This document shows, piece after piece, positions 21,766-64,000 of a stretch of 64,000 bases of DNA. This DNA is from Candidatus Daviesbacteria bacterium (GTDB lineage Bacteria > Patescibacteriota > Microgenomatia > Daviesbacterales > UBA10151). The stretch lies in the NCBI GenBank assembly GCA_028687915.1, contig JAQTZF010000001.1, positions 418,634 to 482,633 on the forward strand. The letters run 5' to 3'. The position numbers and the translations under genes are program-made. A model generated the notes under the pieces. The model was not told where the DNA came from. It worked only from the letters and a program-made list of their open reading frames with translations, and did not search any database. The number at the start of each line of letters is the position of its first letter. Within the stretch, counting starts at the first letter, position 1.

Positions 21766-22947
21766 ATGAAAAAAGCGGTAATCCTACTTTATACCTATAA
21801 TGAAAAAGAAAATCTTGAAAAATTTGTTGGTGAGGTTTTAAATCAAGAAAAACACTCTGATGGATGGAATTTTGAAATATTAATAGCTGACAGCTCTTCT
21901 CCAGATGGCACATTTGAAATAGCAAAAAGACTTGCTAAAAATAATCCTAAAATTCATGCAATTACTGTAGGAAAGGGATTGGGGGTAGCAGTTATTGAAG
22001 GTCATCAATACTCTATAAAACATTTAAAGCCAGATGCTTTGGTTCAACTTGATGCTGATGGACAAGCTAAAGCTGATGTTGTCCCAAGACTTTTAAAAAC
22101 AATTGATGAAGGTTATAACCTTGCCCTTGGTTCAAGATTTGTTAAGGGTGGAAAAAATGATTTAACACTCTTGCGAAGAATTTTTACCTGGGGGTCTTGT
22201 ACCTTTTCCCGTTTAATAATGGGCCCTTTGGATATACAGGAATTTACAAATTCCGCCAGGGCATTTACCCCGGAATTATTTAATAAAATTAATTTAAAAA
22301 GACTTCCCTGGAGGGAACAATCTTATATTATTCAACCTGCTTTTTTAAATGAAGCAGTTTTGGCTGGTGCAAAATACAAAGAAGTTCCTCTTTATTTTAA
22401 AAATAGGGAAGAGGGGTATTCAAAAAATAAAGTCTTTAACTATACCTATGATGTAATTACTTATTCAATAGATGCTAGACTCCGAAAATGGGGTTTTAAT
22501 GGTAATTTTTTTAGAATGTCCAGAAGGGCAAAGACTTTTATTAAGTTTGGGATTGTAGGAGTTACCGGAACTATTGTTGATTTTGCCTTTTATAAAATAT
22601 TTATCAATGGATTTGATTTTAATCCTGCAACAGCCAAGGGGTTTTCTGCAGAAATTGCAGTAGTTAATAATTTTATCTGGAATAATTTTTGGACTTTTAA
22701 ATATAGAAAAACAAAAACCAATTTAGGGCAAAAATTCCTTATTTTTAATCTGGTCAGTGTAGGAGGAATTGTAATAGGTGTTTTGATTGTTAAATTATTG
22801 GATATGACCTTTGGAAGTGGATATGTTTATATTTTAGGAAGACATATTGCCTATAATAACTTTTATTTCTTTGCCACAATCCCACCTGTGATGATTTGGA
22901 ACTTTGTAGCAAATCACCTTATAACCTGGAAAAACAAAGAAGATTAA
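21766..22947 (+). CDS. GT2 glycosyltransferase (Dpm1-like polyprenyl-phosphate sugar synthase) fused to a C-terminal GtrA-like membrane domain
   Basis: The N-terminal ~230 aa have GT-A features (LLYTYNEKENL, ADSSSPDGT, DXD-like QLDADGQ). The C-terminal ~130 aa have 4 TM with FIKFGIVGVTGTIVDFAFYKIF...WNFVANH, typical of the GtrA family. Confidence 0.75.
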   Translation: MKKAVILLYTYNEKENLEKFVGEVLNQEKHSDGWNFEILIADSSSPDGTFEIAKRLAKNNPKIHAITVGKGLGVAVIEGHQYSIKHLKPDALVQLDADGQAKADVVPRLLKTIDEGYNLALGSRFVKGGKNDLTLLRRIFTWGSCTFSRLIMGPLDIQEFTNSARAFTPELFNKINLKRLPWREQSYIIQPAFLNEAVLAGAKYKEVPLYFKNREEGYSKNKVFNYTYDVITYSIDARLRKWGFNGNFFRMSRRAKTFIKFGIVGVTGTIVDFAFYKIFINGFDFNPATAKGFSAEIAVVNNFIWNNFWTFKYRKTKTNLGQKFLIFNLVSVGGIVIGVLIVKLLDMTFGSGYVYILGRHIAYNNFYFFATIPPVMIWNFVANHLITWKNKED

Positions 22948-24113
22948 TTATATAACTGTAAATTAGAAACTGGAGCTGTATTAGAAATTAAGAAGTTTTG
23001 AGCATAAAGGTAAATCCCCAGGGAAACTATCACCAAAACAATTTTAAATTCCTTTGATGTTAAGAGACGCTCAAATGCAATCAGAACAAAAGGAAAGATT
23101 GGTAAAACATATCTGCTAATATCTCTATGTGCTACAAATATACTTGCTCCAAGATAGGTAAAGACAAAGAAAGCTAATGGATAAAGTTTTTGTTTTATTA
23201 AAAACATTGCCCCCAGGAAGCCTAGTATAAAGGTATAAACAATATCTTCCAGCCAGATATCTCCTACCCAAAATTGATTTTTATTAAATACCTGAAAAGG
23301 GGTAAGTGTAAGATGAATATTATCACCAGAATGAAAGTAAGCAAAAAAATCTTTATAAGCCAGGGAATACCAGTAAAAAACTCCCAGCATAGTTAAAGGA
23401 ATTAAAAATAAAGGGGAATAACTAAAAAGATGAGTTATTTTTTGTGAGATAGTTTGTGTTTTGTTTTTAAAAAAGGTATTCCATAATACAAATAAACCAA
23501 TAGCTATAAATATTAAGATTCCTGGTGGTCTGGTAAATTGGGCCAGCATTCCAAAAAGTGCAGTTGCCCAAATATATTTTTGTTGTTTTAAAGCTTCAAA
23601 CTTCATAAAGAAGTAAAAAGTAAGGATGGTAAAGCAGATAAAAATTGGTTCTGCAGAGCCTACACTATGAACTATTAACCATCTGGCAGGTAAGACTAAA
23701 AACAATGATGATAAAAGTAATGGGTGAGTACTTAATTTAAAATCTTTAACTAAATAATAAAAAGCTAAAACTGATGTGATTGTAAAAAATACTGAAATTA
23801 GTAACATTGCTTTTAAGAATCCAAAAAACGGAGAGATTAAAAGTATTAGCATGGCATAACCTGGAAAGTGGGCTGCATAATAATTAGCAGATAGTGATTG
23901 GGGTAAGGAAGCAATAATATGTGGCTGATATAAGGATTTGGCAATAATTACATATTCCAGGCCATCAAAATTACGATAAATTGATCCTATTCCAGCAGAA
24001 AAATTTAAGCCTAATAAATTTTCCAGGTTCAGGTAAAAAGGTAACCAGATTATGAGGGTGAGAAACAGTGTAAGTCCTGTTAAAATAAAGAAATCTTTTA
24101 TAATGTTTTTCAC
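22944..24113 (-). CDS. Polytopic membrane protein, GT-C-like, hypothetical (family uncertain)
   Basis: 389 aa with ~11 TM. It is convergent with the GT2-GtrA gene (4-nt overlap). There is no clear family motif beyond the general GT-C-like architecture. Confidence 0.5.
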   Translation of the reverse strand: MKNIIKDFFILTGLTLFLTLIIWLPFYLNLENLLGLNFSAGIGSIYRNFDGLEYVIIAKSLYQPHIIASLPQSLSANYYAAHFPGYAMLILLISPFFGFLKAMLLISVFFTITSVLAFYYLVKDFKLSTHPLLLSSLFLVLPARWLIVHSVGSAEPIFICFTILTFYFFMKFEALKQQKYIWATALFGMLAQFTRPPGILIFIAIGLFVLWNTFFKNKTQTISQKITHLFSYSPLFLIPLTMLGVFYWYSLAYKDFFAYFHSGDNIHLTLTPFQVFNKNQFWVGDIWLEDIVYTFILGFLGAMFLIKQKLYPLAFFVFTYLGASIFVAHRDISRYVLPIFPFVLIAFERLLTSKEFKIVLVIVSLGIYLYAQNFLISNTAPVSNLQLYN

Positions 24114-24179
24114 AATTTTATGTTAGCATAACCATATATTCTTGTGCTACACTGGCTAAGACTATATTTATAAACTTTT

Positions 24180-24878
24180 ATGAAAATTGACGAATTATCA
24201 GTATTTTTTCCGGTTTACAATGAGGAGAAAAATATTCCTGTTACAGTTGAAAAAGCAATTGCTGTATTAAAAACGTTGGGTTTAAAAAAATATGAAATTA
24301 TTTTAGTTGATGATGGTTCAAAAGATAAAAGTCCGGAAATTATAGATAATTTAGCTAAGAAATATAATTTTATTAAAGCTATTCATCAAGCTAACGGTGG
24401 TTATGGGTGTGCATTAAGAACAGGTTTAGCAAATGCCTCATATGATTGGATAGTTTACACAGACGCAGACGGACAGTTTGATTTTTCAGAAGTTACTAAA
24501 TTTTTGGAGAAAGCAGAAGAAGCAGATGTTATTTATGCTTATAAGATTAAAAGAAGTGATCCTCCTTTTCGAATGTTTGCAGCAGCAGGTTGGGCTTTTT
24601 CATTATTTTTGGTATTAGGTTTAAGGGTAAAAGATGTAGATACAGGTTTTAAGATGGTAAACAAGAAAGTGTTGCAGAAAATTGCACCTTTGGAATCAAC
24701 CAGAGGGGGGATGATTAATGCAGAGCTGGTGATGAAAGCCAGGAAAGCTGGCTTCAGGTTTGCCCAGGTTAGTGTTAATCATTACCATCGTTTATATGGA
24801 AAGCCATCAGGGGTAAAATTAGAAGTAATTATTCAATCATACCTAGACCTTCTTAAACTTTGGTGGAAGTTGCATTAG
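24180..24878 (+). CDS. GT2 glycosyltransferase, Dpm1-like (polyprenyl-phosphate hexose synthase type)
   Basis: 232 aa with the GT-A fold: VFFPVYNEEKNI, VDDGSKDKS, DXD YTDADGQFD. It is small and soluble-type, as in dolichol-P-mannose synthase-like enzymes. Confidence 0.75.
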   Translation: MKIDELSVFFPVYNEEKNIPVTVEKAIAVLKTLGLKKYEIILVDDGSKDKSPEIIDNLAKKYNFIKAIHQANGGYGCALRTGLANASYDWIVYTDADGQFDFSEVTKFLEKAEEADVIYAYKIKRSDPPFRMFAAAGWAFSLFLVLGLRVKDVDTGFKMVNKKVLQKIAPLESTRGGMINAELVMKARKAGFRFAQVSVNHYHRLYGKPSGVKLEVIIQSYLDLLKLWWKLH

Positions 24879-24879
24879 A

Positions 24880-26406: not shown

Positions 26407-27916
26407 TAAAGTCCGGTCCTTTTTAATACAAGATATTCAGAAATATAAATTTCATTATTTTTTGGTAGCTGGTTTATTGGTTTGTGCGTTTGTTTTACGA
26501 GTTTGGAGGATTGATCAATTGCTTGGTTTTTACTTTGATCAAGGGAGAGATGCACTTGTAGTTAATGAAATCATCCAGGGGAACTTAACTTTGATTGGTC
26601 CCACAACAGCTATAGAAGGGATTTTTTTAGGACCCTTTTATTATTACATACTTGCTGTTGGTTATCTTATTGGGCAGGGTAGTCCGGTGATTGCCTCGTA
26701 TTGGCAGACCATAATAATTTTACTGGGGTATTTTGTGACTTTTTTGATAGCTCGAATTTATTTTTCGCTTAGAGTTGGTTTAATTACGCTTTTTTTAATG
26801 ACTTTTTCATTTTCACAAATAAAGTTAGATCGTTGGTTATCAAATCCCACACCAACTATGTTATTTTCTCCCCTGGTGGTACTTTCTTTATTGTTAAGTT
26901 TTAAAACACCTCGTATATTCTTGCCTTTGACAGCATTTTTCTCAGGAATATTATTACAGCTTGAAGCCTCAAGCAGTTTTGCTTTAATGCTAATAACACT
27001 AATATTCATCTTTGTTTTTAGAAAAAAATTTACTCTTACTTCGATGTTGCTTTCGGCTTTAGCATTTTTTATAACACTATTACCACAGATTCTTTTTGAA
27101 ATAAAACATAATTTCTTAATTACAAAGTCATTTTTAAGCTTTTTAAGCGGAAAAGTACAAACTGAAGGCCAGTCTACTTTTAGGATTCCTATTGACCTAA
27201 CCTTTCAAAATAGAGTTGATCTTTATTCAATAACTTTTTTAGAGAAGTTAAAGTTAAATTATGATCTTACCTTTAGTTTCGTTTTTGTCATTTTTTTAAT
27301 AGTTTCATTATTTTTTGTAATAAAGAATTGGTCAAATCCGGCAATTAAATTAATTGCATTCTGGTTTTATGGGCTACTATTATTTTTCTTATTTTATAGC
27401 GGTAACTATGGCATAATTAATAATTATTATTTCTTCCCGATATTTCCCTTATTTTTTATCTTGATTGCTCTTATTCTAAATTGGATGTTTAAAAATAGAT
27501 TTTTGAAACCAATTGTAATTATCTTACTGGCCCTCTTTTTATATGATCAATTACCAATGTCTTTAAGCTATATATCCAGTGGGGTAGATGGGCATACAAC
27601 AATTGCTTTGGGTAATCAGGCTAAGGCGGTTGAATATATTATTAATGATTCTGGTGAGCAGGCATATAACTGGGATGCTTATGTTCCTCCTGTTATACCC
27701 TATACATATACTTATTTATTCAAATATTATGGAAATAGGTATAACCGGATGCCATCAGAACAGATAACCGACAATTTGTATACTATTCATGAGGTAGATA
27801 TATCTATACCGGAAAGAGAAAGTGCTTGGTTAAAAAGACAAGATGAAATTGGTACAATAATAGATACAAAAAATTTTGGTGGAATTACAGTAGAAAAACG
27901 GCAAAGAATAAAATGA
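26390..27916 (+). CDS. Polytopic membrane GT-C-like glycosyltransferase, paralog family A
   Basis: 508 aa. FDQGRDALVVNEII...IGPTTAIEGIFLGPFYYY is present. There is a 17-nt overlap with the upstream paralog. Confidence 0.6.
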   Translation: MKKVFNKVRSFLIQDIQKYKFHYFLVAGLLVCAFVLRVWRIDQLLGFYFDQGRDALVVNEIIQGNLTLIGPTTAIEGIFLGPFYYYILAVGYLIGQGSPVIASYWQTIIILLGYFVTFLIARIYFSLRVGLITLFLMTFSFSQIKLDRWLSNPTPTMLFSPLVVLSLLLSFKTPRIFLPLTAFFSGILLQLEASSSFALMLITLIFIFVFRKKFTLTSMLLSALAFFITLLPQILFEIKHNFLITKSFLSFLSGKVQTEGQSTFRIPIDLTFQNRVDLYSITFLEKLKLNYDLTFSFVFVIFLIVSLFFVIKNWSNPAIKLIAFWFYGLLLFFLFYSGNYGIINNYYFFPIFPLFFILIALILNWMFKNRFLKPIVIILLALFLYDQLPMSLSYISSGVDGHTTIALGNQAKAVEYIINDSGEQAYNWDAYVPPVIPYTYTYLFKYYGNRYNRMPSEQITDNLYTIHEVDISIPERESAWLKRQDEIGTIIDTKNFGGITVEKRQRIK

Positions 27917-28656
27917 AAAATATGAAACTATCAATAGTAATACCGGCTTACAATGAAGCTAAAAACTTAAAAAGAGGTGTTTTGGATGACGTTTATGATT
28001 ACCTTAAAAATCAAAACTATAATTATGAGGTTTTGATTGTTGATGATGGTTCCAGTGATTCGACAGTTAAATTGGTTGAAGCCGAGATTAAAAATAAAAA
28101 AGGCATTCGGTTAATTAAAAACCAACATGGAGGTAAAGCTATTACAGTAATTACTGGTTTATTAGAAAGTATAGGGGATATTGTTTTGTTTACAGATATG
28201 GATCAAGCTACTCCTTTAAATCAGATTGAGAAAATATTTCCAAAGTTTGATAATGGTTTTGATATTGTAATTGGTTCAAGGAAAGGAAGAGAAGGCGCAC
28301 CTCCTATTCGAAAATTAATGGGATGGAGTTTTTCTGTGCTTCGTGGATTAATGCTTGGTTTACCATTTACTGACACGCAGTGTGGATTTAAAGCTTTTAA
28401 TAAAAAATCTATAAAAGTAATTTTTCCGGATCTTTTAAAAAGTTGGAAAAACATAAAAGCAAGTGGTTCTGCAGTAAATGCTGGCTTTGATGTTGAGACA
28501 TTATTTATTGCCAGAAAAAAAGGTTTTAAAATCGCCGAAGTTTTAGTTGACTGGAGACATGTTGGTTCGGAAAGAGTTCAGGCAGTTAAAGACTCGCTTG
28601 AAGCATTGAAGGATATGGTGCGTATTAAAGTTAATGATATCCAAGGAAAATATTAA
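27913..28656 (+). CDS. GT2 glycosyltransferase, Dpm1-like
   Basis: 247 aa. SIVIPAYNEAKNL, VDDGSSDST and DXD FTDMDQATP are present. There is a 4-nt overlap with the upstream gene. Confidence 0.75.
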   Translation: MKNMKLSIVIPAYNEAKNLKRGVLDDVYDYLKNQNYNYEVLIVDDGSSDSTVKLVEAEIKNKKGIRLIKNQHGGKAITVITGLLESIGDIVLFTDMDQATPLNQIEKIFPKFDNGFDIVIGSRKGREGAPPIRKLMGWSFSVLRGLMLGLPFTDTQCGFKAFNKKSIKVIFPDLLKSWKNIKASGSAVNAGFDVETLFIARKKGFKIAEVLVDWRHVGSERVQAVKDSLEALKDMVRIKVNDIQGKY

Positions 28657-31544: not shown

Positions 31545-31563
31545 CTTTCCCTAGTATGATGAT

Positions 31564-33252: not shown

Positions 33253-33258
33253 GAAGTT

Positions 33259-50388: not shown

Positions 50389-50402
50389 AATCATGAAACA
50401 TT

Positions 50403-52879: not shown

Positions 52880-52922
52880 TAGAAAGTAGTTTTTATATAG
52901 GAAGATAAGAAACAATAAAATA

Positions 52923-54574: not shown

Positions 54575-55657
54575 ATGAGAGTTGCCATTTATAGTCCCTA
54601 TTTGGATAGTTTCGGAGGTGGAGAACGCTATATATTAACTGTAGCTGAATTATTATCCTCTAATAATCAAGTTGATTTGTTATTAGACAGTCATCTGCAG
54701 TTATTAATTACTGAAGATATGAAGAATGATTTAGGTAAAAGATTTAATTTAAATCTATCTGAAGTAAAGCTAGTTAAAGCACCTTTAGGTAGAGGAAAAG
54801 GCTTTTTAAGTAAATTCTTTTTTTTAAGAAAATATGATTTAGTTTTCTTTTTAACTGACGGAAGCATTTTTTACTCAACTGCTAAAAGAAATATTATTCA
54901 TTTTCAAGTTCCCTTTAAAAACACTGTTGCAAGGAGTTTATGGGGAAGAATAAAATTATCAAGTTGGAATCTGGCTGTTTGTAATTCTAAGTTTACTCAA
55001 AGTGTAATTGAAAAAGACTGGCCAATTAAATCTCAGGTGATATATCCACCTGTGGATGTAGAAGCAATTAAGCCTTTAAATAAAAAGAAGCAAATATTAT
55101 CTGTTGGAAGATTTGCTTCTTTTTCCAAATTAAAGAAGCATGAAATGATGATTAAGGCCTTTAAAGAGCTTCATCAGGAGAAAAAAATATCTGGTTGGAG
55201 CTTACATCTGGTTGGATCAATTGAAGGAGATAATGGTTATATAGAAGAACTAAAAGAATTGGCAAAAGGTTTACCAATTAAGTTTTATCCAAATTTATCT
55301 TTTACAGGTTTAGTAAAACTTTATGGTGAATCCAGTATTTATTGGCACGCAGCTGGATTTGGAGAGGATAATCCGGCATTGATGGAGCATTTTGGTATTG
55401 CAACAGTGGAAGCTATGGCTGGAGGTTGTGTGCCTATTGTTATTAATAGTGGTGGTCAAGTAGAAATTGTGGAGAATGAATTATCGGGTTATTTATGGAA
55501 TCAAATTAATGAACTAAAAGGCTTTACAACTACTCTTGTAAAAGATAATTCTTTATTGGTTAAATTATCAGCTAATGCTGTAAAGCGAAGTAAGGTATTT
55601 TCTAAAAAGTTCTTTCAAGATAATTTACTTAAATTAGTAAAATCATTAGATGAATAG
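54575..55657 (+). CDS. GT4 (GT-B fold) glycosyltransferase
   Basis: 360 aa. The C-terminal EHFGIATVEAMAGGCVPIV is the GT4 EX7E-type nucleotide-sugar binding motif. The N-terminus MRVAIYSPYLDSFGGGERY is also typical. Confidence 0.75.
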   Translation: MRVAIYSPYLDSFGGGERYILTVAELLSSNNQVDLLLDSHLQLLITEDMKNDLGKRFNLNLSEVKLVKAPLGRGKGFLSKFFFLRKYDLVFFLTDGSIFYSTAKRNIIHFQVPFKNTVARSLWGRIKLSSWNLAVCNSKFTQSVIEKDWPIKSQVIYPPVDVEAIKPLNKKKQILSVGRFASFSKLKKHEMMIKAFKELHQEKKISGWSLHLVGSIEGDNGYIEELKELAKGLPIKFYPNLSFTGLVKLYGESSIYWHAAGFGEDNPALMEHFGIATVEAMAGGCVPIVINSGGQVEIVENELSGYLWNQINELKGFTTTLVKDNSLLVKLSANAVKRSKVFSKKFFQDNLLKLVKSLDE

Positions 55658-56450
55658 AATTAGCATTATTATTGTCACTTTCAATAGTGCTAAAACTATT
55701 AAAGCTTGTGTTGATTCGATAAATAAGTTTGTAACAGATAGTGAAATAATAATCGTAGATAATAATTCACAGGATGATACTTGTAAGATTATCCAGGGTT
55801 TTGGGGATAAAGTTAAACTGATTCAGCCAGGTGGTAATTTAGGTTTTGCAAAAGCAAACAATTTAGGTATTAAGTCTGCATTAGGTGAGTATATAATCTT
55901 CTTAAATCCTGATACCAGAATAATGGAGAAAGATTCTTTGGAGAAGTTGGTTGCAACATTAGAAGATAATACTGAATATGGGATTATTGGACCAAAACTA
56001 GTTTATCCAGATGGTTCTTTACAATCACGAACACGTAACTTGCCAACAGTATTAAGAGCCTTTCAAGAATATATTTTAAATAAAAAAGGATCATATGATT
56101 TTTATACTCCAGTTTGTAAAACACTTTGTGAGGTTGAAAGTGTTATTGGAGCTTGTATTGTTATTAAGAAAAAATTATTTCAAAAAGTCGGAGGTTTTGA
56201 TGAAAAATATTTTATGTATTTTGAAGACCTTGAATTATGCAGAAATGTGAGACTCTCAGGCTTAAAAGTAGGTTACTTACCAGAGGTTAAAATAGAACAT
56301 GCAGAGGGAAAATCCGGAGTAAATCAAAAAACATCAAATATGCTTCATAATTCTGCAAAGTTATATCATGGTTTTGTGAAGTACTATCTTATTGAGGCGA
56401 TGCTAATAGCAATAAGGGTTAGAAATAAGATTAAAAATATTTTAACTTAA
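55650..56450 (+). CDS. GT2 glycosyltransferase (rhamnosyltransferase-like)
   Basis: 266 aa. ISIIIVTFNSAKTIKACVDS, VDNNSQDDT, DXD NPDTRI and FDEKYFMYFEDLELCRN are present. Confidence 0.75.
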   Translation: MNRISIIIVTFNSAKTIKACVDSINKFVTDSEIIIVDNNSQDDTCKIIQGFGDKVKLIQPGGNLGFAKANNLGIKSALGEYIIFLNPDTRIMEKDSLEKLVATLEDNTEYGIIGPKLVYPDGSLQSRTRNLPTVLRAFQEYILNKKGSYDFYTPVCKTLCEVESVIGACIVIKKKLFQKVGGFDEKYFMYFEDLELCRNVRLSGLKVGYLPEVKIEHAEGKSGVNQKTSNMLHNSAKLYHGFVKYYLIEAMLIAIRVRNKIKNILT

Positions 56451-57955
56451 TGTATAGTATGAAATTTAGATATAGAAAAAAATTAATATGGGGATCTCTT
56501 TTAGTAATAGTGTGTATTTTTATCTGGTCTTTTTTTACTTATCGAATAACAGAAGTTCCACCTGGTATTAATTCCGATGAAGCAGCAATAGGATATAATG
56601 CTCTTTTAATATCTCGTACCCTTTATGATGAAAACAATCGTTTTCTACCGGTCTTTACTTTGACTCTTGATAAAAAAGATTGGAAACAGCCAATCACGCT
56701 TTATTCAACAGCTTTAGCATTTCGTATATTTGGACCTTCGTATGAATTACTTCGAGGGGTTAGCGTTGTTTTTATAATTATTAGTTTTGTTTTATTGTTT
56801 TTTTTACTAAAAGAGTTGTTCGATTTAAAAGCTACAATACTTGGCTTAGTGGTTTTTATCACAACACCGATTCTTATGATCCAATCTCATTTAGCTTTGG
56901 AAAATATCGCCCCAGTGCCTTTTATTGTTTTTTGGTTACTGATGATTTTAAAATACCAAAAAACACAACATTTAAAATACCTACTTTTAGCTGGATTTAC
57001 TCTAGGATTGAGTTTTTATTCTTATAATGCAATGCGGCTAATTATACCCGTACTTACTATTTTGACTGTTAGCTATATTTTTTATATTAAAAGAAAAATG
57101 GATCTCAGTAAGGTACTTATTCCCGAGATATATTTTCTTGTTGGCATTACACCTTTTGTAATTATATTGCCTTGGCTAAATACTGCTTATCCTGGTGCAA
57201 TTTTGGGTAGCGGCCGTCCAGCTGAGATTATTTCTTATCAGCAGTTTTTAGCACCTTATTTATCAACTTTTGACCTATCGTTTTTATATCTTAAGGGAGA
57301 TGTTACTTTATTTCATTCAACCGGGAACCAGGGTATGTTTCTATTGGCAACATTACCAATATTCTTTTTAGGATGTTTTAAGGCAATACAAAGTAAGAAA
57401 CCATTCTTTATTTTTGTATTATTAGTATTTTTTTTATCACCCATTTTGTTCGGTTTGGTGGAATCAGTCTATAGAGCGAGTAGGCTTTTAGTTTTATTAC
57501 CACCATATGTTGTTATTTCAGCATTAGGAATATGTAGTTTATTTGAGAAAAAGAGGTATCTTTTTAAGTATGTTTTTACAATGCTAGTGCTATTTTTAAT
57601 ATTCTTAAATTTTCTGGATTTTATTAATGATTATTGGTTTAGCTATCCTTTAAGGGTAAAACAGACTTTTCCTAGTACAGCTCACATAAGCTTTAGGAAA
57701 CTATATGATCAATCTCGTAGATCAGGTTTAGAGCCAGTAGTTCAGTTAGATATTTTTCTAAAAGAAAACATTTCTGCACAATTTTTTCGACAGTTATACT
57801 TTCCTGATGCATTGATTTTGTGGAAACGTGAAGAGGTTTTGCCATCAAAAGCTGTTTTACTAGTGAATTCTATGGACTTGTCGTTTTCTCAAAAAGCAGT
57901 TTTAAATAAGGTTAATACTAAAATGCAGGATTATGATTTATGGGAAACAAAATAA
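56450..57955 (+). CDS. ArnT/PMT-like membrane glycosyltransferase, paralog family B
   Basis: 501 aa. GINSDEAAIGYNALLISRT...NRFLPVF...YSTALAFRIFGPSYELLRGVS is present. Its start shares the last base of the upstream stop codon. Confidence 0.65.
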   Translation: MYSMKFRYRKKLIWGSLLVIVCIFIWSFFTYRITEVPPGINSDEAAIGYNALLISRTLYDENNRFLPVFTLTLDKKDWKQPITLYSTALAFRIFGPSYELLRGVSVVFIIISFVLLFFLLKELFDLKATILGLVVFITTPILMIQSHLALENIAPVPFIVFWLLMILKYQKTQHLKYLLLAGFTLGLSFYSYNAMRLIIPVLTILTVSYIFYIKRKMDLSKVLIPEIYFLVGITPFVIILPWLNTAYPGAILGSGRPAEIISYQQFLAPYLSTFDLSFLYLKGDVTLFHSTGNQGMFLLATLPIFFLGCFKAIQSKKPFFIFVLLVFFLSPILFGLVESVYRASRLLVLLPPYVVISALGICSLFEKKRYLFKYVFTMLVLFLIFLNFLDFINDYWFSYPLRVKQTFPSTAHISFRKLYDQSRRSGLEPVVQLDIFLKENISAQFFRQLYFPDALILWKREEVLPSKAVLLVNSMDLSFSQKAVLNKVNTKMQDYDLWETK

Positions 57956-59346
57956 TGAATAAAAAAACATGGTTTTGGGTTCTGGTGTTATTTTTTGTAG
58001 CTGCTTTTTTTCGAATATTTTTTTTCGATTTAATTGAATTTAAGACTGATGAAGCAATTACTGTTTTTCAAACGGTTCAGTTTTACCTGGATCCCCATAT
58101 AATTCAAAGAGGGTTAATATCTGGTATCGGTGTATATAATTTTCCTTTATTTAATTACTTGGTAATTATTTTATCTGTTTTTTCCCGTAATCCAGAGCAC
58201 ATTAGTTTTGTAATAGCTTTAATAAATACATTATTGGTGCCTATTTTCTTCTTAATTATAAGAAGATACTATGATCAGGTAACTGCTGTATTTGCTTCCT
58301 TGTTGTTAGCGTTTTCTCCTTGGGCAATTATTTATTCACGTAAAATTTGGGCTCAGGATTTAATCTTGCTATTACTTATCCCATTTTTTGCATTATTACA
58401 CGAACTAATTCTTAGGAAAAAGAGTCAAATGACTATGCCAATATTTATTATCCTGGTTTTATTAAGTCAGCTGCATGCATCTGGAATATTTTTGTCTGCG
58501 GCTACTATTTTAATAATTATTCTTTTGCGGGTTAAAATTAATTTTTGGCAGGCTTTAATAGGGATACTAATTGGTTCTATTGTAGCTATACCATATATTG
58601 TTTTTCAACTAACATCAAATCCGCAATGTCCTGATTGTGAAGCATTTTTTAAATACCAAAGCTCTGCTCGCTCATTTGATATTTATAACCTGATCCGCCC
58701 ATTTCAACTGATGAATGGACAAGGATATCACTTTGTTTTAGGGGATAGTTATGATGGATTTATAGCTTCGTTTTCACTGCTAAAGTATTTAAAATATTTC
58801 TTCTTATCGAGCTTTATAATTCCTTTTATAGGAATATTTTTTATCATAACTAAAAAGCGAGAATATCTATTTTTAGTTATGTATTTAGTTATAATTCCAC
58901 CACTTTATTTTGTAACCAGAACAATACCCTATATGCATTATTTTGTGATTTTAATTCCAATAATTGTCACAGTATATGCGCTCTCATTTAGTAGTATCTT
59001 TAATTTATTGAAAGCAAGGCTGTTAAAATCATTAGTAATAGTATCATTTGGAGTGTTTATTAGTGTAAATATAGTTTTTGTGTATTGTTTTTATCAGTAT
59101 TTGTCTATCGCTAAAGTAATTCAAGGGGATTACGGACCAATTTTTTCCTTAACTAAACAAACAGTAGACCAGAGACTTCAAGATTACCGGAATGTACAAT
59201 ATTATAATGAACTTCAAAGTTATACATATGTAATTTTAGGTTCAAAAGATTTTAATGCTAAATTGAGTAATTTTTTTGTCTATCATGGAGACACAGAGTT
59301 TGCTGCCTTAGAGCTAGAAAAACAGACAAAGGAAGTTTTTAAATAA
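57940..59346 (+). CDS. Polytopic membrane protein, GT-C-like, hypothetical
   Basis: 468 aa. EFKTDEAITVFQTVQF..IGVYNFPLFNYL is a DE-containing first loop. There is a 16-nt overlap with the upstream gene. Confidence 0.5.
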   Translation: MGNKIMNKKTWFWVLVLFFVAAFFRIFFFDLIEFKTDEAITVFQTVQFYLDPHIIQRGLISGIGVYNFPLFNYLVIILSVFSRNPEHISFVIALINTLLVPIFFLIIRRYYDQVTAVFASLLLAFSPWAIIYSRKIWAQDLILLLLIPFFALLHELILRKKSQMTMPIFIILVLLSQLHASGIFLSAATILIIILLRVKINFWQALIGILIGSIVAIPYIVFQLTSNPQCPDCEAFFKYQSSARSFDIYNLIRPFQLMNGQGYHFVLGDSYDGFIASFSLLKYLKYFFLSSFIIPFIGIFFIITKKREYLFLVMYLVIIPPLYFVTRTIPYMHYFVILIPIIVTVYALSFSSIFNLLKARLLKSLVIVSFGVFISVNIVFVYCFYQYLSIAKVIQGDYGPIFSLTKQTVDQRLQDYRNVQYYNELQSYTYVILGSKDFNAKLSNFFVYHGDTEFAALELEKQTKEVFK

Positions 59347-60977
59347 TGAAGATATATTTATGTATTATATTAATAATTGCTTTTTTTGTAAGGTTCATTA
59401 ACTTGGAGTCTGTTCCACCTGGTTTAGGTTGGGATGAAGTTAGCCATGGTTATAATGCTTATTCTATTTTAAAAACAGGGCATGATGAATGGGGACAATT
59501 TTTACCCATAGCTAATTTTCGTGCATATGGTGATTATCCGCTGCCTTTATATATGTATATTATGATGCCATTTATTTCGTTATTTGGTTTAAATGAATTC
59601 GCCATCCGTTTCCCATCTGCATTACTTGGGTCGCTTACAATATTAATAATTTATTTATTATCTAAGGAGATTTTTAAGAATGAAAAAACTGCTTTATTAT
59701 CTGCATTTTTGTTGGCATTATCTCCATGGGGAATTTTGCCAAGTCGTCAGGTTATACAATCAACCCCAGCAATTTTCTTTTTATCCTTAGGTTTTTGGTT
59801 GCTTATAAAAAGTATTTCATCAAGGGGTTTATATAGTGTCTTAGGTGCTATAAGTTTAGGATTATCTGCATATGCTTATCATAATACGAGGATTCTTGCA
59901 CCACTTTTACTAATATTTTTTGCTTTTCTTTTTAAAGACAAGATATTTATCAACGTAAAAAAATATGTATTATCTTTTTTAATAATTTGTATATTTTTTA
60001 TTCCACTTATTCCAATTATATTTTCCAGTGAAGGTTCTGCAAGAGCAAATTGGGTAAGTATAATTGATCAAGGTGCAATTAATTATCTTAATGAATCAAG
60101 AACGTTTTCAACATTACCGGATCCTTTACCTCGTTTAATTTTTAATCGGCCTGTGTATTTTATTTCAAAGTTTAGTTTAAATTATTTAGGATACTTCAAT
60201 CCTTTATATTTAGGATTTGAAGGCGGAACACATTATCAATTTAGTATTCCTCATTTTGGTATTGTTTATCCTGTAGAATTACCATTCTTTTATATAGGTT
60301 TAATAATCTTAATATTTAATGTTATTAAACTAGATAATAATAAAAGATTTATTCTGGGATGGTTGATACTTGCTCCTTTACCAGCTGCTGTTACCCGTGA
60401 TCCTTATCAGGTTATTAGAGCTTTTGCCATGATTACTCCGTATTATTTAATAGTTGGATATGGGTTAGTTGTTGTATTTGATTATTTGAAAGATAAATTT
60501 AAAATTTCTCAAAAGCTTTTAATTTCAATTTTCTTGTTATCAATTATAGTTTTATCTTTATTTTATTTACAAAACCTTTACTTTATTTATCCAAAAAAAT
60601 ATTCTTTTGCATGGCAATATGGATATAAAGAGGCTGTTCAATATATCCAGGATAATTCTTCCAAATATTCCAGAGTAGTAATTACAAAAAGATACGGTGA
60701 GCCACATGAATTTCTGCTTTTTTATTCAAAATATGATCCAAAAAGTTATCAAACTGACCCAAATCTAATAAGGTATGAGAAAAGCCAGTGGTTTTGGGTT
60801 GATAGGTTTAATAAGTTTGAGTTTATTAATGATTGGGAGATTAAAGAGAAGATGATTGGGGCAACCAATACGCTATTAGTTACCAGTCCTGGTAATTATC
60901 CTTTGGGCAGTAGGATTGTTAAAAGCATATATTTTTTGAATGGTGATAAAGCTTTTGATATAGTAGCTATAGATTAG
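59346..60977 (+). CDS. ArnT/PMT-like membrane glycosyltransferase, paralog family B
   Basis: 543 aa. GLGWDEVSHGYNAYSILKTGHDEWGQFLPIANFRAYGDYPLPLYMY...NEFAIRFPSALLG is present. It is about 40% identical by eye to the 61044 product. Confidence 0.65.
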   Translation: MKIYLCIILIIAFFVRFINLESVPPGLGWDEVSHGYNAYSILKTGHDEWGQFLPIANFRAYGDYPLPLYMYIMMPFISLFGLNEFAIRFPSALLGSLTILIIYLLSKEIFKNEKTALLSAFLLALSPWGILPSRQVIQSTPAIFFLSLGFWLLIKSISSRGLYSVLGAISLGLSAYAYHNTRILAPLLLIFFAFLFKDKIFINVKKYVLSFLIICIFFIPLIPIIFSSEGSARANWVSIIDQGAINYLNESRTFSTLPDPLPRLIFNRPVYFISKFSLNYLGYFNPLYLGFEGGTHYQFSIPHFGIVYPVELPFFYIGLIILIFNVIKLDNNKRFILGWLILAPLPAAVTRDPYQVIRAFAMITPYYLIVGYGLVVVFDYLKDKFKISQKLLISIFLLSIIVLSLFYLQNLYFIYPKKYSFAWQYGYKEAVQYIQDNSSKYSRVVITKRYGEPHEFLLFYSKYDPKSYQTDPNLIRYEKSQWFWVDRFNKFEFINDWEIKEKMIGATNTLLVTSPGNYPLGSRIVKSIYFLNGDKAFDIVAID

Positions 60978-61031
60978 ATATTCTGGGTATAACCGTCTCG
61001 ATTACATCTCGCGCTTGAAACTCTAGCGAGT

Positions 61032-61037
61032 TATAAT
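61032..61037 (+). promoter_or_regulatory. TATAAT -10 hexamer 6 nt upstream of ATG 61044 (leaderless-type)
   Basis: The sequence is gagtTATAATattaaaATG, preceded by an unusually GC-rich 35-nt segment (ccgtctcgattacatctcgcgcttgaaactctagcgag). Confidence 0.25.
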
Positions 61038-61043
61038 ATTAAA

Positions 61044-62675
61044 ATGAAGATAAAAGCCTCTTATCTTAGGTTGTTTGTAATTTCAATAATTTTTATTCTC
61101 GGATTATTTCTTAGATTAGTGAATATACAAGACGTTCCCCCTGGATTTAATGCTGATGAAGCAGCTTTGGGATATAATGCTTACTCAGTGTTGAATACAG
61201 GAAAAGACGAGTGGGGAGAGGCTTTTCCTTTAACATTTAAATCCTTTTCTGATTACAAACCTGGCCTTTACGTATATTTAGATATACCCTTTGTATGGCT
61301 TTTAGGGTTAAATGAGCTTGCTGTTAGGTTACCTTCAATCATTTTAGGTTCATTTTCAGTTATTTTAATCTATTTCCTTTCAAAGCAGTTTTTTAAAAAT
61401 GAATTAATTGCACTATCAAGTGCGTTTCTTTTAGCCATCTCTCCCTGGCATCTTCATTTTTCCAGAGGCGCTTGGGAAACAAATATTGCTACCTTTTTTA
61501 TGTTGCTAGGTATCTTTGCTTTTATTAAAGGGGTAGAAAAACAAAAATGGTTATATATTAGTGCTTTATCGATGGCTTTTGCCATGTATTCATACCAAAG
61601 CCAGCGTTTGATCATCCCTGTTATGGCTGTATTTCTAATTTTGTTTTACTGGAAAAAATTACTAGTTAAAAAAAATATGGGAGTAATTATTTTTGCAATT
61701 ATTATAATTATTCCTTTTATTTCTATCATGACAAGCCAAACTGGACTGGCAAGATTTCAAGGCATTTCTATTTTTTCTGATGTTGGACCACTAAACAGAA
61801 TTAATCAACTGAGGGGTGAAGATATGGATCCTAATAGCTTTACTGCTAAATTTTTTCATAATAAAGTTATAGAGTACAGTGATAATTTTTTAAGCCATTA
61901 TATGGATCATTTTTCATTTAATTTTCTTTTTCTAAATGGTGATCCACTTGGTAGAAATAAAGTTCCCAATACAGGGCAGTTTTATATGTTTGAAATAATT
62001 ACAATCTTATTGGGAATTTATCTTTTGTGCCGCAAGAGATTTAGCTATATTAGAATACTTTTAGTATGGATTTTAGTCGCACCTGTTGCCGCCTCGTTAA
62101 CTTATCAAACTCCACATGCACTAAGGGCAGAAAATATGGTAATTCCTCTTGCTTTGCTTTCTGGTTTGGGATTAGGGACATTGATCGAGAAAATTTGGCA
62201 ATTTAAAATGGGTATTAAATATATTAGCCTGTTTTTATTTGCTTTGATAATCACTTTTTTTGTAACAAGCTATTTGCATAATTATTATGTACATCTTCCA
62301 AAAGAGTATGCCTTGGAATGGGAACATGGCTTTTCTAAGATGGTACAGTATGTTTTAGAAAACCAGGATAAATATCAAAAGGTAGTAATTACCGATAGAT
62401 ATGACCAAGCATACATCCTGGTGCTTTTTTATTCTAAATATGATCCTGCTAAATATCAGCAAACAGAAAAAACTGTTGGAGATAATAAATTTGGGTTTTC
62501 CACCATCTCTGCTTTCGATAAATATGAATTTAGACCGATTGCAAAAGAAGAGATAGCTACAAATAAAGACACCTTGTTTATTGCAAGTAAGGATGAAGTT
62601 AATGAGGATGCTTCACAGCTGAAAGTGATTAATTTCCCCAATGTAACTCCAGTATTTAGAATATTTGGGAAGTAG
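61044..62675 (+). CDS. ArnT/PMT-like membrane glycosyltransferase, paralog family B
   Basis: 543 aa. GFNADEAALGYNAYSVLNTGKDEWGEAFPLTFKSFSDYKPGLYVY...NELAVRLPSIILG is present. Confidence 0.65.
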   Translation: MKIKASYLRLFVISIIFILGLFLRLVNIQDVPPGFNADEAALGYNAYSVLNTGKDEWGEAFPLTFKSFSDYKPGLYVYLDIPFVWLLGLNELAVRLPSIILGSFSVILIYFLSKQFFKNELIALSSAFLLAISPWHLHFSRGAWETNIATFFMLLGIFAFIKGVEKQKWLYISALSMAFAMYSYQSQRLIIPVMAVFLILFYWKKLLVKKNMGVIIFAIIIIIPFISIMTSQTGLARFQGISIFSDVGPLNRINQLRGEDMDPNSFTAKFFHNKVIEYSDNFLSHYMDHFSFNFLFLNGDPLGRNKVPNTGQFYMFEIITILLGIYLLCRKRFSYIRILLVWILVAPVAASLTYQTPHALRAENMVIPLALLSGLGLGTLIEKIWQFKMGIKYISLFLFALIITFFVTSYLHNYYVHLPKEYALEWEHGFSKMVQYVLENQDKYQKVVITDRYDQAYILVLFYSKYDPAKYQQTEKTVGDNKFGFSTISAFDKYEFRPIAKEEIATNKDTLFIASKDEVNEDASQLKVINFPNVTPVFRIFGK

Positions 62676-62686
62676 AATTTCAAAGT

Positions 62687-64000
62687 ATGAAATTAAAAAT
62701 TAAGATTTTATTTTTTTGTATAATTTTTTTAGCTCTAATCTTAAGAATATATAAAATAGACCAAATACCACCATCTATTTCCTGGGATGAGGCAGCTGTT
62801 GGCTACAATGCTTATACAATTGCTAATTGGGGTAAGGATGAGTGGGGAAAGACGTTTCCTTTAATTTTTACTTCTTTTGAAGATGATAAACATCCAGTAC
62901 ATATTTATTTTACAGCACTCTCCGTTAAGATTTTAGGATTATCAGATTTTAGTATGAGGCTACCAGCAGCTGTTTTTGGTATTTTAAATGTAATAGTTAT
63001 CTTTTATCTTGCGAGGCTCATCTTTTCGAGTTCTTTTGTTGGTTTAATTTCTGCATTATTTTTAGCTGTTTCTCCTTATTCTATTCAATTCTCAAGATTT
63101 AACCATGAAGCTAACTTTGCTTTATTTTTTTGGATGTTTGGTTTATTTTTATTTATTAGTGGAGTTAAGGGTAAAAGAAGACTACTACCTTTTGCTTTTT
63201 TAAGTTTTGGTACTTCTCTTTTTGCATACCATGCTTCAAAAGTTGTAGTACCACCCCTACTTATAATTTTGATTGCATTTTATTGGAGTGAACTATTTAA
63301 AGCAGGCAGGTATTTCTTAATCTCACTGATAATAATAGGTGTGTTTGGCCTTGTGATGATGCTTAATCCGCGATTATTAGGGGTAGCAAGGGTAAACCAG
63401 ACGTCTTTTGGTTCTGATGTGGTCCACAAGACTTTGCTCTATCAAAGGACAAACAACGAAATACTGGGGAGGCTTGAGGTTACATTCAATCAATATTTAC
63501 TGCACCTTGATCCAGGATATTTGTTTTTTACTGGTGGAGCAAATAAGAAGTTCTCTACTCAAGTAGTCGGCGAATTTTATAAGATTGATGCACCACTATT
63601 GGTTTTTGGATTCTTAGGATTATTATGGGGGATAGCTTTTAAGACTGGCAGACGAAAAATATTTTTAATCTTATTGGGATGGATAATTCTAGCACCTATC
63701 CCAGCAAGTTTAGTATCTGAAGCGCCTCATCCTGCCAGAGCACTGTTTATGATGGGAAGCTGGAATATGATTGCAGCATATGGCTTTTATGTAATAAGCA
63801 GGGCTTCCACAAAGCTACCTTATAAAATAATTGTTTCTGTAATTATTTTGTCTGTATTATCTATTCTCTTTTTCAATTATCTTACAGATTATTATAATAA
63901 TTATGCAAAAAGAGACTCCATTGATTGGCAGTATGGCATGAAGCAGATCGTAGAATATACGAAAGAAAACGACTCTTATAGGCAGATTTTTGTAACTGAT
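62687..64000 (+). CDS. ArnT/PMT-like membrane glycosyltransferase, paralog family B (3' end outside the window)
   Basis: This ORF is not in the supplied track because it runs off the window. ATG at 62687 opens MKLKIKILFF...ISWDEAAVGYNAYTIANWGKDEWGKTFPLIFTSFEDDKHPVHIYFTALSVKILGLSDFSMRLPAAVFG, and the frame stays open to nt 64000. Confidence 0.6.
   Translation, partial: MKLKIKILFFCIIFLALILRIYKIDQIPPSISWDEAAVGYNAYTIANWGKDEWGKTFPLIFTSFEDDKHPVHIYFTALSVKILGLSDFSMRLPAAVFGILNVIVIFYLARLIFSSSFVGLISALFLAVSPYSIQFSRFNHEANFALFFWMFGLFLFISGVKGKRRLLPFAFLSFGTSLFAYHASKVVVPPLLIILIAFYWSELFKAGRYFLISLIIIGVFGLVMMLNPRLLGVARVNQTSFGSDVVHKTLLYQRTNNEILGRLEVTFNQYLLHLDPGYLFFTGGANKKFSTQVVGEFYKIDAPLLVFGFLGLLWGIAFKTGRRKIFLILLGWIILAPIPASLVSEAPHPARALFMMGSWNMIAAYGFYVISRASTKLPYKIIVSVIILSVLSILFFNYLTDYYNNYAKRDSIDWQYGMKQIVEYTKENDSYRQIFVTD

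Follow-up and report, generated by a model that had tools for sequence, protein, structure and literature searches.

In multi-component transmembrane glycosylation, a GT-A enzyme makes a lipid-linked sugar (C55-P-sugar), a flippase moves the sugar across the membrane and a GT-C enzyme transfers it on the outside (PMC8035078, PMC5836110). In the three-component systems of this type known from Gram-positive bacteria (CsbB/GtcA/YfhO, GtlA/GtlB, GacI-J-K-L and the CsdAB/CD/EF proteins of Lactococcus), a GT2 gene adjoins a gene for a PMT_2- or YfhO-type GT-C enzyme and the flippase is of the GtrA or Wzx type (Rismondo et al., PMC5836110, PMC8035078). Here, we analyzed a stretch of 64 kb (the window) from the 1,096,538-bp contig JAQTZF010000001.1 of a Candidatus Daviesbacteria metagenome-assembled genome (MAG), in which 22 polytopic proteins of GT-C type could be recognized by Pfam, paralogy, profile-profile comparison or predicted fold. 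The same arrangement of GT2 next to PMT_2/YfhO-type GT-C genes was observed in this locus, together with a Wzx-type flippase. We suggest that the locus probably directs the Wzx-dependent, polyprenyl-phosphate-sugar-fed assembly of a complex envelope glycopolymer on the extracytoplasmic side, and that it would be the main envelope-glycan factory of the Daviesbacteria cell.

The scale of the array is what sets it apart from the Gram-positive systems. The latter comprise one to three GT-A/GT-C pairs scattered in genomes of 2-3 Mb, whereas the window holds 22 GT-C genes, 20 of them contiguous, and three candidate donor synthases on a contig of 1.1 Mb. Two gene orders in the array, a GT2-A-A cassette headed by the GT2 gene at 24180 and a GT2-PMT_2-PMT_2 cassette headed by that at 27913 (genes are named by their first coordinate, and A stands for paralogue family A below), mirror the GT-A/GT-C pairs csbB-yfhO, ykcC-ykcB and gacI-gacL (PMC8035078), and a rhamnose pathway lies near the array, as in rhamnan systems. 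Unlike the Gram-positive systems, however, the window contains neither recognizable teichoic-acid or rhamnan backbone genes nor a separate GtrA.

The window has a GC content of 30-38% and 46 sizeable open reading frames (ORFs). An earlier note, made from the sequence alone, had drawn attention to the array, and ORFs were present at all of the positions that it listed; the reduced-genome organism of which it spoke is a member of the Microgenomates (Candidate Phyla Radiation (CPR)/Patescibacteria), represented here by a contig of 1.10 Mb. Between 21766 and 64000 (42.2 kb) there are 20 GT-C genes, that is, one per 2.1 kb and not one per 2.7 kb as had been estimated. Approximately 99% of the DNA in this interval is occupied by glycosylation genes, with intergenic gaps of -29 to +126 nucleotides. 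From 24180 to 46549 the overlaps and gaps range only from -29 to +24 nucleotides, and they are still small downstream. The tight packing proposed for the run starting at 24180 was thus borne out, but the run is not fully co-directional, because 46554 lies on the minus strand and breaks it. Likewise, the nucleotide-sugar genes assigned to the locus do exist (RmlC/D/B, GalE and a dehydrogenase) but are located outside 21766-64000. Taken together, the 22 GT-C genes sum to 36.3 kb, or 3.3% of the contig, and a 25.9-kb Logan contig (run SRR22315507) also holds parts of the locus.

All-against-all BLASTP of the window proteins, by which the paralogue families were defined, gave identities of only 21-38% among the paralogues. 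An assembly or repeat artefact, or a recent tandem duplication, could therefore be rejected, and the GT-C paralogues are, judging from their divergence, old duplicates. A horizontally acquired island was also rejected, as the GC content of the array is uniform (0.30-0.34).

The assignment of these proteins to the GT-C superfamily is supported by several lines of evidence. A crude Kyte-Doolittle scan counted 7-14 hydrophobic segments in each of the 22 candidates, and 13 of them passed the Pfam gathering threshold for a GT-C family. Eleven of the 15 PMT_2-type proteins matched PMT_2 or PMT above the threshold (3215, 22944, 24880, 28634, 30015, 44831, 48019, 56450, 59346, 61044 and 62687) and three others fell slightly under it (4730, 46554 and 57940). 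The five proteins without any Pfam match of their own (26390, 34898, 36620, 39383 and 42820) were linked to GT-C enzymes by paralogy, by homologues bearing GT87 or PIG-M domains, by hhalign or by predicted fold. As had been proposed, the polytopic proteins thus belong to GT-C groups, namely ArnT/PMT_2-like, YfhO/PTPS_related-like, GT87-like and, by fold, family D (see below).

Five of the PMT_2-type proteins form family A. Two are encoded on the minus strand near the start of the window: 3215..4717 (PMT_2, 43 bits; HDQD after the first transmembrane (TM) helix, TM1; 28-29% identity to 46554) and the divergent 4730..6265 (PMT_2, 22.7 bits, below threshold), a paralogue of 26390 and 24880 with E-values of 1e-17 to 1e-14. 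The neighbouring genes 24880-26406 (PMT/PMT_2, 39 bits) and 26390-27916 (no Pfam match; family A paralogue at E 3e-26) are on the plus strand, and the motifs GDEGRD/FDQGRD belong to this pair. The fifth member is 46554..47945 on the minus strand (PMT_2, 25 bits, just below threshold), a paralogue of 3215 (E 4e-29). The core of family B consists of 44831..46549 on the plus strand (PMT_2, 39 bits; 27-30% identity to 59346, 61044 and 62687) and of the latter three proteins, to which 56450 can be added. These four are part of a block of five consecutive plus-strand GT-C genes (56450..64000; PMT_2 and/or PMT matches), in which the B-like 56450 is followed by the orphan 57940 and then by 59346, 61044 and 62687 (B-core identity 31-35%); 62687 is cut off by the window end at 64000. 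Two further plus-strand genes, 28634-30022 (PMT_2, 73 bits) and 30015-31544 (PMT_2, 39 bits), encode distant PMT_2 relatives with weak ties to the family B core. Hence, of the paralogue families delineated previously, A, C and D were recovered as described, whereas B is looser than supposed. Two more orphans are 48019..49419 on the plus strand (PMT_2, 39 bits) and 22944..24113 on the minus strand, a PMT-like protein of 389 amino acids (Pfam PMT, 23.9 bits against a threshold of 22.7) for which the NCBIfam model of the AZOBR_p60025 cell-surface glycopolymer family scored 38 bits, less than its cut-off.

All PMT_2-type and family C paralogues have an acidic motif (such as DE, DQ or DD) approximately 10-25 residues past TM1, and 50403, 36620 and 22944 have a single Asp at the equivalent place. 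When 14 PMT_2-type paralogues with a mutual identity of about 20% were aligned, no column other than that of this Asp was invariant. When the profile of the 14 paralogues was compared with the PDB, it matched ArnT (5ezm) at E 5e-15 over the membrane domain, and the invariant Asp of loop 1 was aligned with the DE of the ArnT motif 'PDEGRYAE'. No other solved structure gave a strong E-value; the next one, AglB, was at E 0.002. The N-terminal tails of the GT-C proteins are rich in Lys and Arg and their first loops are acidic, which fits a topology with the N-terminus inside and loop 1 outside. The conserved loop motif and its extracytoplasmic location, both put forward in the earlier note, thus agree with the alignments and with the charge distribution.

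These results bear on the possibility that the polytopic proteins are transporters or other membrane proteins which carry the motif by chance. Five of the 22 have no Pfam match of their own, and single-sequence PDB searches with 59346, 24880 and 33259 returned no match, so that the paralogue profile was needed to reach ArnT. On the other hand, more than half of the set passed a GT-C threshold, the profile placed the catalytic Asp of ArnT on the invariant column, and the sole match to a transporter family among the window proteins was the expected Wzx. This explanation is effectively refuted, and we would give it hardly any weight.

The resemblance to the ArnC/ArnT system, in which a GT83 enzyme transfers L-Ara4N from undecaprenyl phosphate to lipid A, extends beyond the ArnT profile match, as 24180 and 27913 count ArnC among their nearest relatives and a UDP-glucose dehydrogenase gene is nearby. 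However, identity is low, ArnT was missed by single-sequence searches, and the genes for ArnA, ArnB and ArnD are not in the window. CPR bacteria lack an outer membrane (PMC7906910). Lipid A modification of the ArnT type was thus rejected, given an organism without an outer membrane and a window without Arn pathway genes.

The remaining sequence-recognizable GT-C enzymes belong to other groups. Family C comprises three plus-strand genes of PTPS_related/YfhO-like type (31564, 33259 and 34898; 31564..36595), whose products share 25-38% identity, have DD after TM1 and show a weak BLASTP link to the YfhO protein 50403. PTPS_related was above threshold in 33259 (41.6 bits), and in 31564 the matches to PTPS_related, PMT_2 and YfhO (18 bits) were all weak and below threshold. 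The protein 50403..52796 (plus strand, 797 amino acids) is a clear YfhO-type GT-C (76.2 bits; cut-off 28.5), and its C-terminus weakly resembles PgfM1/PgfM2 (NCBIfam score 27 against an equivalog cut-off of 1400). Finally, 36620..37879 on the plus strand encodes a probable GT87-like (PimE/DUF2029-like) GT-C, assigned through the domains of its homologues. The protein itself had no Pfam match even at E 10 and is 100% identical to the Daviesbacteria hypothetical protein PHQ59_02555, but dozens of homologues with 45-76% identity bear PF09594 (GT87), several of those at 46-50% also carry PF05007 (PIG-M), and some are named 'glycosyltransferase 87 family protein' by NCBI.

A second group of known systems, in which many GT-C enzymes form most of the linkages outside from polyprenyl-phosphate monosaccharides, consists of the mycobacterial and corynebacterial pathways for lipomannan, lipoarabinomannan and arabinogalactan (Ppm1, PimA/B, PimE, MptA-C, EmbA-C, AftA-D and PpgS/Rv3779). 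The window shares with them a synthase like dolichol-phosphate mannose synthase (DPMS) or Ppm1, a putative GT87 enzyme similar to PimE and MptC, cytoplasmic priming by GT4 and GT2 enzymes, and large GT-C enzymes with additional carbohydrate-active domains, as in AftD and Emb. In contrast, neither Arabinose_trans/Emb Pfam matches nor genes for decaprenyl-phosphate arabinose or a mycolic-acid-type envelope are present in the window; the mycobacterial genes are dispersed and do not form one array, and sequence identity between the window proteins and the mycobacterial enzymes is undetectable.

Family D is the most unusual part of the array. It consists of a long form encoded at 39383..42808 (D-long) and a short form at 42820..44844 (D-short), both on the plus strand. 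D-long has a signal peptide, an extracytoplasmic DUF3863-like domain of approximately 450 amino acids, a GT-C body and a C-terminal soluble domain, and its C-terminal 670 residues are 30% identical to D-short, for which the predicted fold indicates an architecture like that of STT3, PglB and AglB. Neither protein matched any Pfam or NCBIfam model even at E 10, STT3 included, and the family profile, when compared with PDB sequences, retrieved no solved structure and hence no solved oligosaccharyltransferase or GT-C. We therefore used predicted folds. An AlphaFold2 model of D-short, built on 34 homologues, had a pLDDT of 89 and a pTM of 0.91, and the top 25 Foldseek matches in the PDB were all GT-C proteins, with STT3, AglB and PglB first (E 1e-9 to 1e-6), followed by DPY19, AftA, ArnT, AftD and Pmt4; transporters appeared only at a probability of at most 0.1. 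AftB, EmbA and PimE were also among the fold matches. The model suggests a TM body followed by a C-terminal alpha/beta globular domain of oligosaccharyltransferase type. In addition, residues 113-314 of family D matched the PMT_2 core of the other paralogues in hhalign (93.6% probability, E 2e-7), and the conserved Asp of family D lies further in, around residues 124-135. By predicted fold and profile match, family D is therefore a GT-C family.

This does not make it a family of oligosaccharyltransferases. Against the STT3/AglB/PglB enzymes (GT66), the TM-scores were only 0.41-0.51, with ArnT, Pmt, ALG12 and AftA nearly as high, and family D is set apart from them by three additional TM helices at the N-terminus and also, where the long form is concerned, by the DUF3863-like domain. 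The oligosaccharyltransferase motif WWDxG was found in none of 34 family D sequences, and not even WWD occurs in 39383 or 42820. Since WWDxG defines oligosaccharyltransferases, and since an STT3 profile match is also lacking, the assignment of family D to true oligosaccharyltransferases was rejected.

At an E-value of up to 1e-3, family D has 1,818 representatives after clustering at 50%, and homologues come from Daviesbacteria and other Microgenomates. Its members are either short (∼560-680 amino acids) or long (∼1,020-1,160 amino acids). Many short members begin at profile position ∼95-100, which suggests that the first three helices of D-short represent an N-terminal extension. With three such helices the N-terminus would be outside, and this fits the long form, in which a signal peptide and the ∼450-residue domain precede the helices. 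The model of this domain (pLDDT 90) consists of a barrel and a beta-sandwich, and its best fold match (E 1.4e-15) was 3lm3, a DUF3863 'putative glycoside hydrolase/deacetylase'; structures of CE4, GH57 and GH38 enzymes came next. In an alignment of 26 sequences the conserved residues of the domain included R36, D73, E96, D159 and E380, and no invariant or near-invariant His was found. The NodB-type Asp-His-His metal site is thus missing, and a role as a canonical CE4 metal enzyme (CE4 deacetylase) was rejected for lack of a conserved His. The predicted fold hints at a carbohydrate acceptor, in parallel with the carbohydrate-binding domains of AftD and YfhO (PMC8035078).

We also observed that D-short is 75% identical to its orthologue in the related loci L001 and L006 (JAUSHE010000014.1, a Daviesbacteria MAG), compared with 46-56% for flanking orthologues. 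Twelve metagenomic proteins are 73-78% identical to it, after which there is a gap down to 53%. Such an excess of identity suggests either recombination or transfer of this single gene or an unusually strong constraint on its sequence.

With regard to sugar donors, seven GT2 enzymes, one GT4, a MOP-type flippase and a YfhO-like protein had been reported to be interleaved with the GT-C genes, and all were confirmed by Pfam. Three of the GT2 enzymes had been regarded as Dpm1-type synthases. This holds best for 21766..22947 (plus strand), a polyprenyl-phosphate sugar synthase in which a GT2 domain is fused to a GtrA/DPMS membrane domain (Pfam Glycos_transf_2 and GtrA_DPMS_TM): residues 3-350 of its 393 match the dolichol-phosphate mannose synthase of Pyrococcus furiosus (5mlz) at E 3.3e-34, and the match reaches into the membrane domain. 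The other two, 24180..24878 and 27913..28656 (both on the plus strand; 33% mutual identity), are small GT2 proteins without TM helices and are candidate polyprenyl-phosphate-sugar synthases, 24180 being similar to GacI, PpgS and DPM1. The best PDB relatives were ArnC (E 2e-15), then GtrB and DPMS for 24180, and DPMS 5mlz (E 6.6e-16), GtrB and ArnC for 27913. Among NCBIfam models, 24180 scored highest with ArnC, dolichyl-phosphate hexose transferase and PgfS. For 27913, PgfS came first (80 bits against a cut-off of 500) and the dolichyl-phosphate hexose transferase model was aligned over positions 3-210 of 213. PpgS was also among the best models of both proteins, and all of these scores are below the equivalog cut-offs. 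The nearest relatives of 24180 and 27913 would agree with a Dpm1-type role. NCBIfam comparison also showed that both 21766 and 27913 resemble PgfS and AglJ.

Synthases of polyprenyl-phosphate sugars that lack TM helices are exemplified by GacI, PpgS and human DPM1. In the known multi-component systems, small TM-less GT2 enzymes such as GacI do occur (PMC8035078). The other four GT2 enzymes of the window showed no preference for polyprenyl-phosphate-sugar synthases, their nearest models being rhamnosyltransferase-like or generic GT2, and they fall into two pairs, 49489 with 53771 and the rhamnosyltransferase-like 52923 with 55650. The first pair is 31% identical; 49489..50388 (plus strand; Glycos_transf_2, 63 bits) is a cytoplasmic GT2, and 53771 is part of a plus-strand cassette of cytoplasmic transferases identified by Pfam (52923..56450: GT2 52923, GT2 53771, GT4 54575 and GT2 55650). 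Both members of the second pair matched NCBIfam TIGR01556 at 85 bits, below the cut-off. The flippase, encoded at 37869..39371 on the plus strand, is of Wzx/MOP type (Polysacc_synt_3, 180 bits; Polysacc_synt, 88 bits) and has 10 hydrophobic segments.

To see how widely the array is distributed, we scanned one genome per GTDB species for related loci and classified the ORFs within 10 kb of each by BLASTP to the window proteins. We identified 37 related loci in Daviesbacteria, Shapirobacteria, Woesebacteria and MAGs labelled 'Microgenomates group'. Nearly all of these ORFs encode GT-C, Wzx, GT2 or GT4 proteins, and most of the unclassified ones are also polytopic and have no Pfam match. A recurrent core order could be recognized: C-(GT87)-Wzx-D-long-D-short-B-gt2-gt2-gt4-B and so on. 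Wzx and family D are direct neighbours in 26 of the 37 loci, the gt2-gt2-gt4 run is kept in most of them, and family C orthologues were found in 10-21. Two comparison loci with the core order, one from GCA_030648435.1 and one from a JGI metagenome contig, contain in succession family C genes, a GT87-like gene (419 amino acids), a PTPS_related gene (377-380 amino acids), Wzx, D-long (∼1,140 amino acids), D-short (∼675 amino acids), PMT_2, GT2, GT2, GT4, a protein of 417-457 amino acids and three PMT_2 genes. Positional orthologues are 40-54% identical, compared with 21-38% for the paralogues of the window. In the 56450-64000 block, positional orthologues in the two closest loci (L001 and L002) reach 43-60%; 49489 is conserved in both, and 44831 has a positional orthologue after family D in related loci. 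That orthologues are more similar than paralogues implies that the duplications predate the divergence of these lineages and that each paralogue has been kept since, and the array is, by these comparisons, an old, conserved trait of the Microgenomates lineage and not a peculiarity of one genome.

The periphery of the locus is variable. Five window genes (46554, the YfhO gene 50403, 52923, 55650 and 56450) are missing from the two closest loci, which in turn possess the additional 377-380-residue PTPS_related gene that the window lacks. The number and order of family A, family B, YfhO and unassigned polytopic genes vary among the 37 loci, and the GT2-GT-C cassettes are modular. Such variation would be expected if the array were a reservoir of diversity, in which interchangeable or strain-variable enzymes change the side-chain sugars on a simple backbone for phage evasion or host specificity, as in Gtr serotype conversion or the decoration of wall teichoic acid in Listeria. 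However, the central genes are kept as positional orthologues in Daviesbacteria, Shapirobacteria and Woesebacteria, and the higher identity of orthologues than of paralogues points to distinct, non-redundant roles. There are also no recent duplicates (the top paralogue identity is 38%), and a scan of viral contigs found no relatives of family D. As an explanation of the whole array, a diversity reservoir is therefore improbable, although for the periphery it can be compatible with the assembly of an envelope glycopolymer.

It was also observed that further recurrent polytopic proteins (∼380-430 amino acids, 6-12 hydrophobic segments), with neither a Pfam match nor a window counterpart, lie between the PMT_2 genes of loci L011-L034 (for example, L012:13763-14920 and L024:7049-8329). 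They may represent additional unmodelled GT-C or Wzy-like families.

How might such a locus work? The explanation that we favour, the assembly of an envelope glycopolymer outside the membrane, joins the multi-component transmembrane scheme to a Wzx-dependent pathway for lipid-linked oligosaccharides. The cytoplasmic GT2 and GT4 enzymes (49489, 52923, 53771, 54575 and 55650) would build a lipid-linked oligosaccharide from nucleotide sugars, some of which RmlBCD, GalE and the UDP-sugar dehydrogenase would provide, and Wzx (37869) would flip this oligosaccharide across the membrane. In parallel, the DPMS/GtrB/ArnC-like GT2 enzymes 21766, 24180 and 27913 would load single sugars onto polyprenyl phosphate. 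At the outer face, each of the ∼22 GT-C enzymes would move a sugar from its lipid carrier to the growing glycan by means of the loop-1 Asp, so that families A and B (ArnT/PMT_2-like) and C (YfhO/PTPS-related) may carry out linkage-specific elongation or branching and the GT87-like 36620 may act in the manner of PimE or MptC. The D-long/D-short pair might take the Wzx-flipped glycan and either polymerize it or transfer it en bloc, a role suggested by gene adjacency to Wzx and by fold resemblance, and the DUF3863-like domain of D-long might bind or trim the carbohydrate acceptor. Given 22 conserved GT-C enzymes, the product would receive most of its linkages on the outside, a logic akin to that of the mycobacterial lipomannan, lipoarabinomannan and arabinogalactan pathways. 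The carbohydrate-active fold on D-long and the number of distinct conserved GT-C enzymes favour a polysaccharide or lipoglycan as the product.

Several observations weigh against this interpretation. Among the window ORFs, no priming phosphoglycosyltransferase, no Wzy polymerase, no WaaL- or LCP-type ligase and no stand-alone GtrA flippase could be recognized with Pfam and NCBIfam. Neither 24180 nor 27913 contains a membrane segment, their scores fall far short of all NCBIfam equivalog cut-offs, and both could be ordinary cytoplasmic GT2 enzymes. The catalytic role proposed for family D derives from a predicted fold and one profile-profile match over 159 columns. Moreover, the Ser/Thr/Pro-rich anchored proteins encoded at 9169 and 10455, as well as the similarities to PgfS and PgfM, fit a protein acceptor equally well.

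Protein glycosylation should thus be considered in its own right. In that case, polyprenyl-phosphate sugars would be used by the PMT_2/YfhO-type GT-C enzymes for the O-glycosylation of proteins that are secreted or anchored (pilins, S-layer or Ser/Thr/Pro-rich proteins), and family D would be an oligosaccharyltransferase for the Wzx-flipped glycan. Precedents include actinobacterial Pmt, PgfS/PgfM1/PgfM2 of Streptococcus mutans and TfpW of Pseudomonas. The Pgf system of S. mutans (PgfS, PgfM1, PgfE and PgfM2) resembles the window in that a GtrB-like GT2, a 4-epimerase and YfhO-type GT-C enzymes occur together, but it has two GT-C enzymes instead of 22, and the scores of the window proteins are far below the equivalog cut-offs. 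The matching Pfam families are PMT families, although PMT_2 is equally typical of ArnT-like enzymes and of those that decorate teichoic acids or polysaccharides (PMC8035078). None of the paralogues had a Pfam match to the MIR domain, the loop 5 mark of eukaryotic GT39 members. Bacterial Pmt enzymes also lack MIR domains, so their absence does not exclude protein O-glycosylation. Suitable substrates could be present as well: pili and a periodic surface layer occur on CPR cells (PMC7906910), and two anchored proteins of the window (9169-10029 and 10455-11267) have long Pro/Thr/Ser/Ala-rich stretches typical of O-glycosylation substrates. The resemblances to PMT, Pgf, AglJ and STT3 together with these two neighbours keep protein glycosylation in contention. 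However, no window protein has an STT3 Pfam match and WWDxG is absent from family D, known O-glycosylation systems use one to a few GT-C enzymes whereas 22 individually conserved ones suggest many polymer linkages, and the hydrolase/deacetylase-fold domain of D-long suggests a carbohydrate substrate. On balance, we consider it rather unlikely that the array serves mainly protein glycosylation.

A more far-reaching version of the envelope-glycopolymer explanation may be offered tentatively, as a possibility of which we are ourselves doubtful. The Microgenomates, with genomes of ∼1 Mb, might build a lineage-defining, mycobacteria-like envelope glycan almost wholly outside the membrane by at least 20 GT-C steps. 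The trio of Wzx, D-long and D-short would then be an unrecognized GT-C machine, possibly heterodimeric like Pmt1-Pmt2 or EmbA-EmbB, that polymerizes the flipped glycan or transfers it en bloc and replaces the missing Wzy and LCP/WaaL.

Every component of the array comes from a known superfamily, and in this sense it is not categorically new. What is unusual is its scale and contiguity in a genome of ∼1 Mb, its conservation throughout the Microgenomates and a family D that combines an STT3-like architecture with a DUF3863-fold fusion. A full-text literature search, with few subscription journals in its coverage, found no description of GT-C arrays or oligosaccharyltransferase-like proteins of CPR bacteria, Microgenomates or Daviesbacteria. 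If our interpretation holds, this is the densest natural GT-C array known to us. CPR/Patescibacteria, which account for a large share of bacterial diversity, spend their lives attached to other cells, and next to nothing is known about the chemistry of their envelopes. The locus, whose GT-C genes are individually conserved across Daviesbacteria, Shapirobacteria and Woesebacteria, suggests that a surface glycan is central to CPR biology, be it in attachment, in the recognition of hosts, in defence against phages or in the integrity of the envelope. It also provides concrete targets, including a defined gene set suited to heterologous reconstitution, three candidate lipid-sugar donor synthases and a new GT-C family of ∼1,800 clusters at 50% identity, which is not covered by any Pfam or NCBIfam model and matches no solved structure in sequence, yet has a predicted fold resembling solved GT-C enzymes. 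In addition, being compact, the locus may help to show how the specificities for donor and acceptor diversify within one fold.

The genes for nucleotide sugars lie upstream of the array. A UDP-glucose/nucleotide-sugar 6-dehydrogenase is encoded at 835..2124 on the minus strand (N-terminal, central and C-terminal Pfam UDPG_MGDP_dh domains); it is TuaD-like and matched an NCBIfam NDP-sugar dehydrogenase subfamily at 477 bits, above the cut-off. The UDP-glucose 4-epimerase GalE follows at 2190..3218 on the plus strand (TIGR01179, 313.6 bits against a cut-off of 262.3; Pfam Epimerase). RmlC, RmlD and RmlB of the dTDP-L-rhamnose pathway are encoded at 17562..20006 on the plus strand (dTDP_sugar_isom, 192 bits; RmlD_sub_bind, 212 bits; GDP_Man_Dehyd, 350 bits), and RmlA is not in the window. 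Directly upstream of rmlC, a plus-strand ORF of 86 amino acids (17291-17551) has three predicted TM helices; the idea that it acts as a GacJ-like helper of the small GT2 enzymes lacking TM helices was rejected, as no Pfam family supports this.

Of the two predicted surface proteins, 9169-10029 (plus strand) has low-complexity Pro/Ala/Thr/Ser stretches and a C-terminal membrane anchor, and 10455-11267 (minus strand) has a signal peptide, Pro/Ala/Thr/Ser stretches, a 'TPTPT...' linker and a C-terminal anchor. Judging from their composition, both are potential acceptors of the PMT-like enzymes encoded nearby. The highest GC content of the window (0.379) was found in the 8-12 kb bin and may be due to the Pro/Ala-rich gene 9169.

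TsaE is encoded at 10019-10507, and a plus-strand ORF of 104 amino acids (16043-16357) aligns with the N-terminal part of the TsaD/TsaB family only (Pfam TsaD, 58 bits; positions 30-84 of the 264 in the profile); to judge from this match, it is either a fragment or an exceptionally short TsaB-like protein. The soluble protein of 532 amino acids encoded at 20079-21677 (plus strand), between RmlB and the DPMS-like gene, has no Pfam match and no counterpart in the 37 related loci. It scored 135 bits with the Sll1717-family P-loop ATPase model of NCBIfam (cut-off 75), and there was a weak match (39 bits) to PDC-M28C, which PADLOC lists as a candidate defence component. Finally, many of the genomes with related loci (L007, L008, L010 and others) bear titles such as 'uncultured Gammaproteobacteria', 'Clostridia bacterium', 'Spirochaetia' or 'Bathyarchaeia archaeon', names which, judging from the content of these loci, appear to be generic or mistaken.

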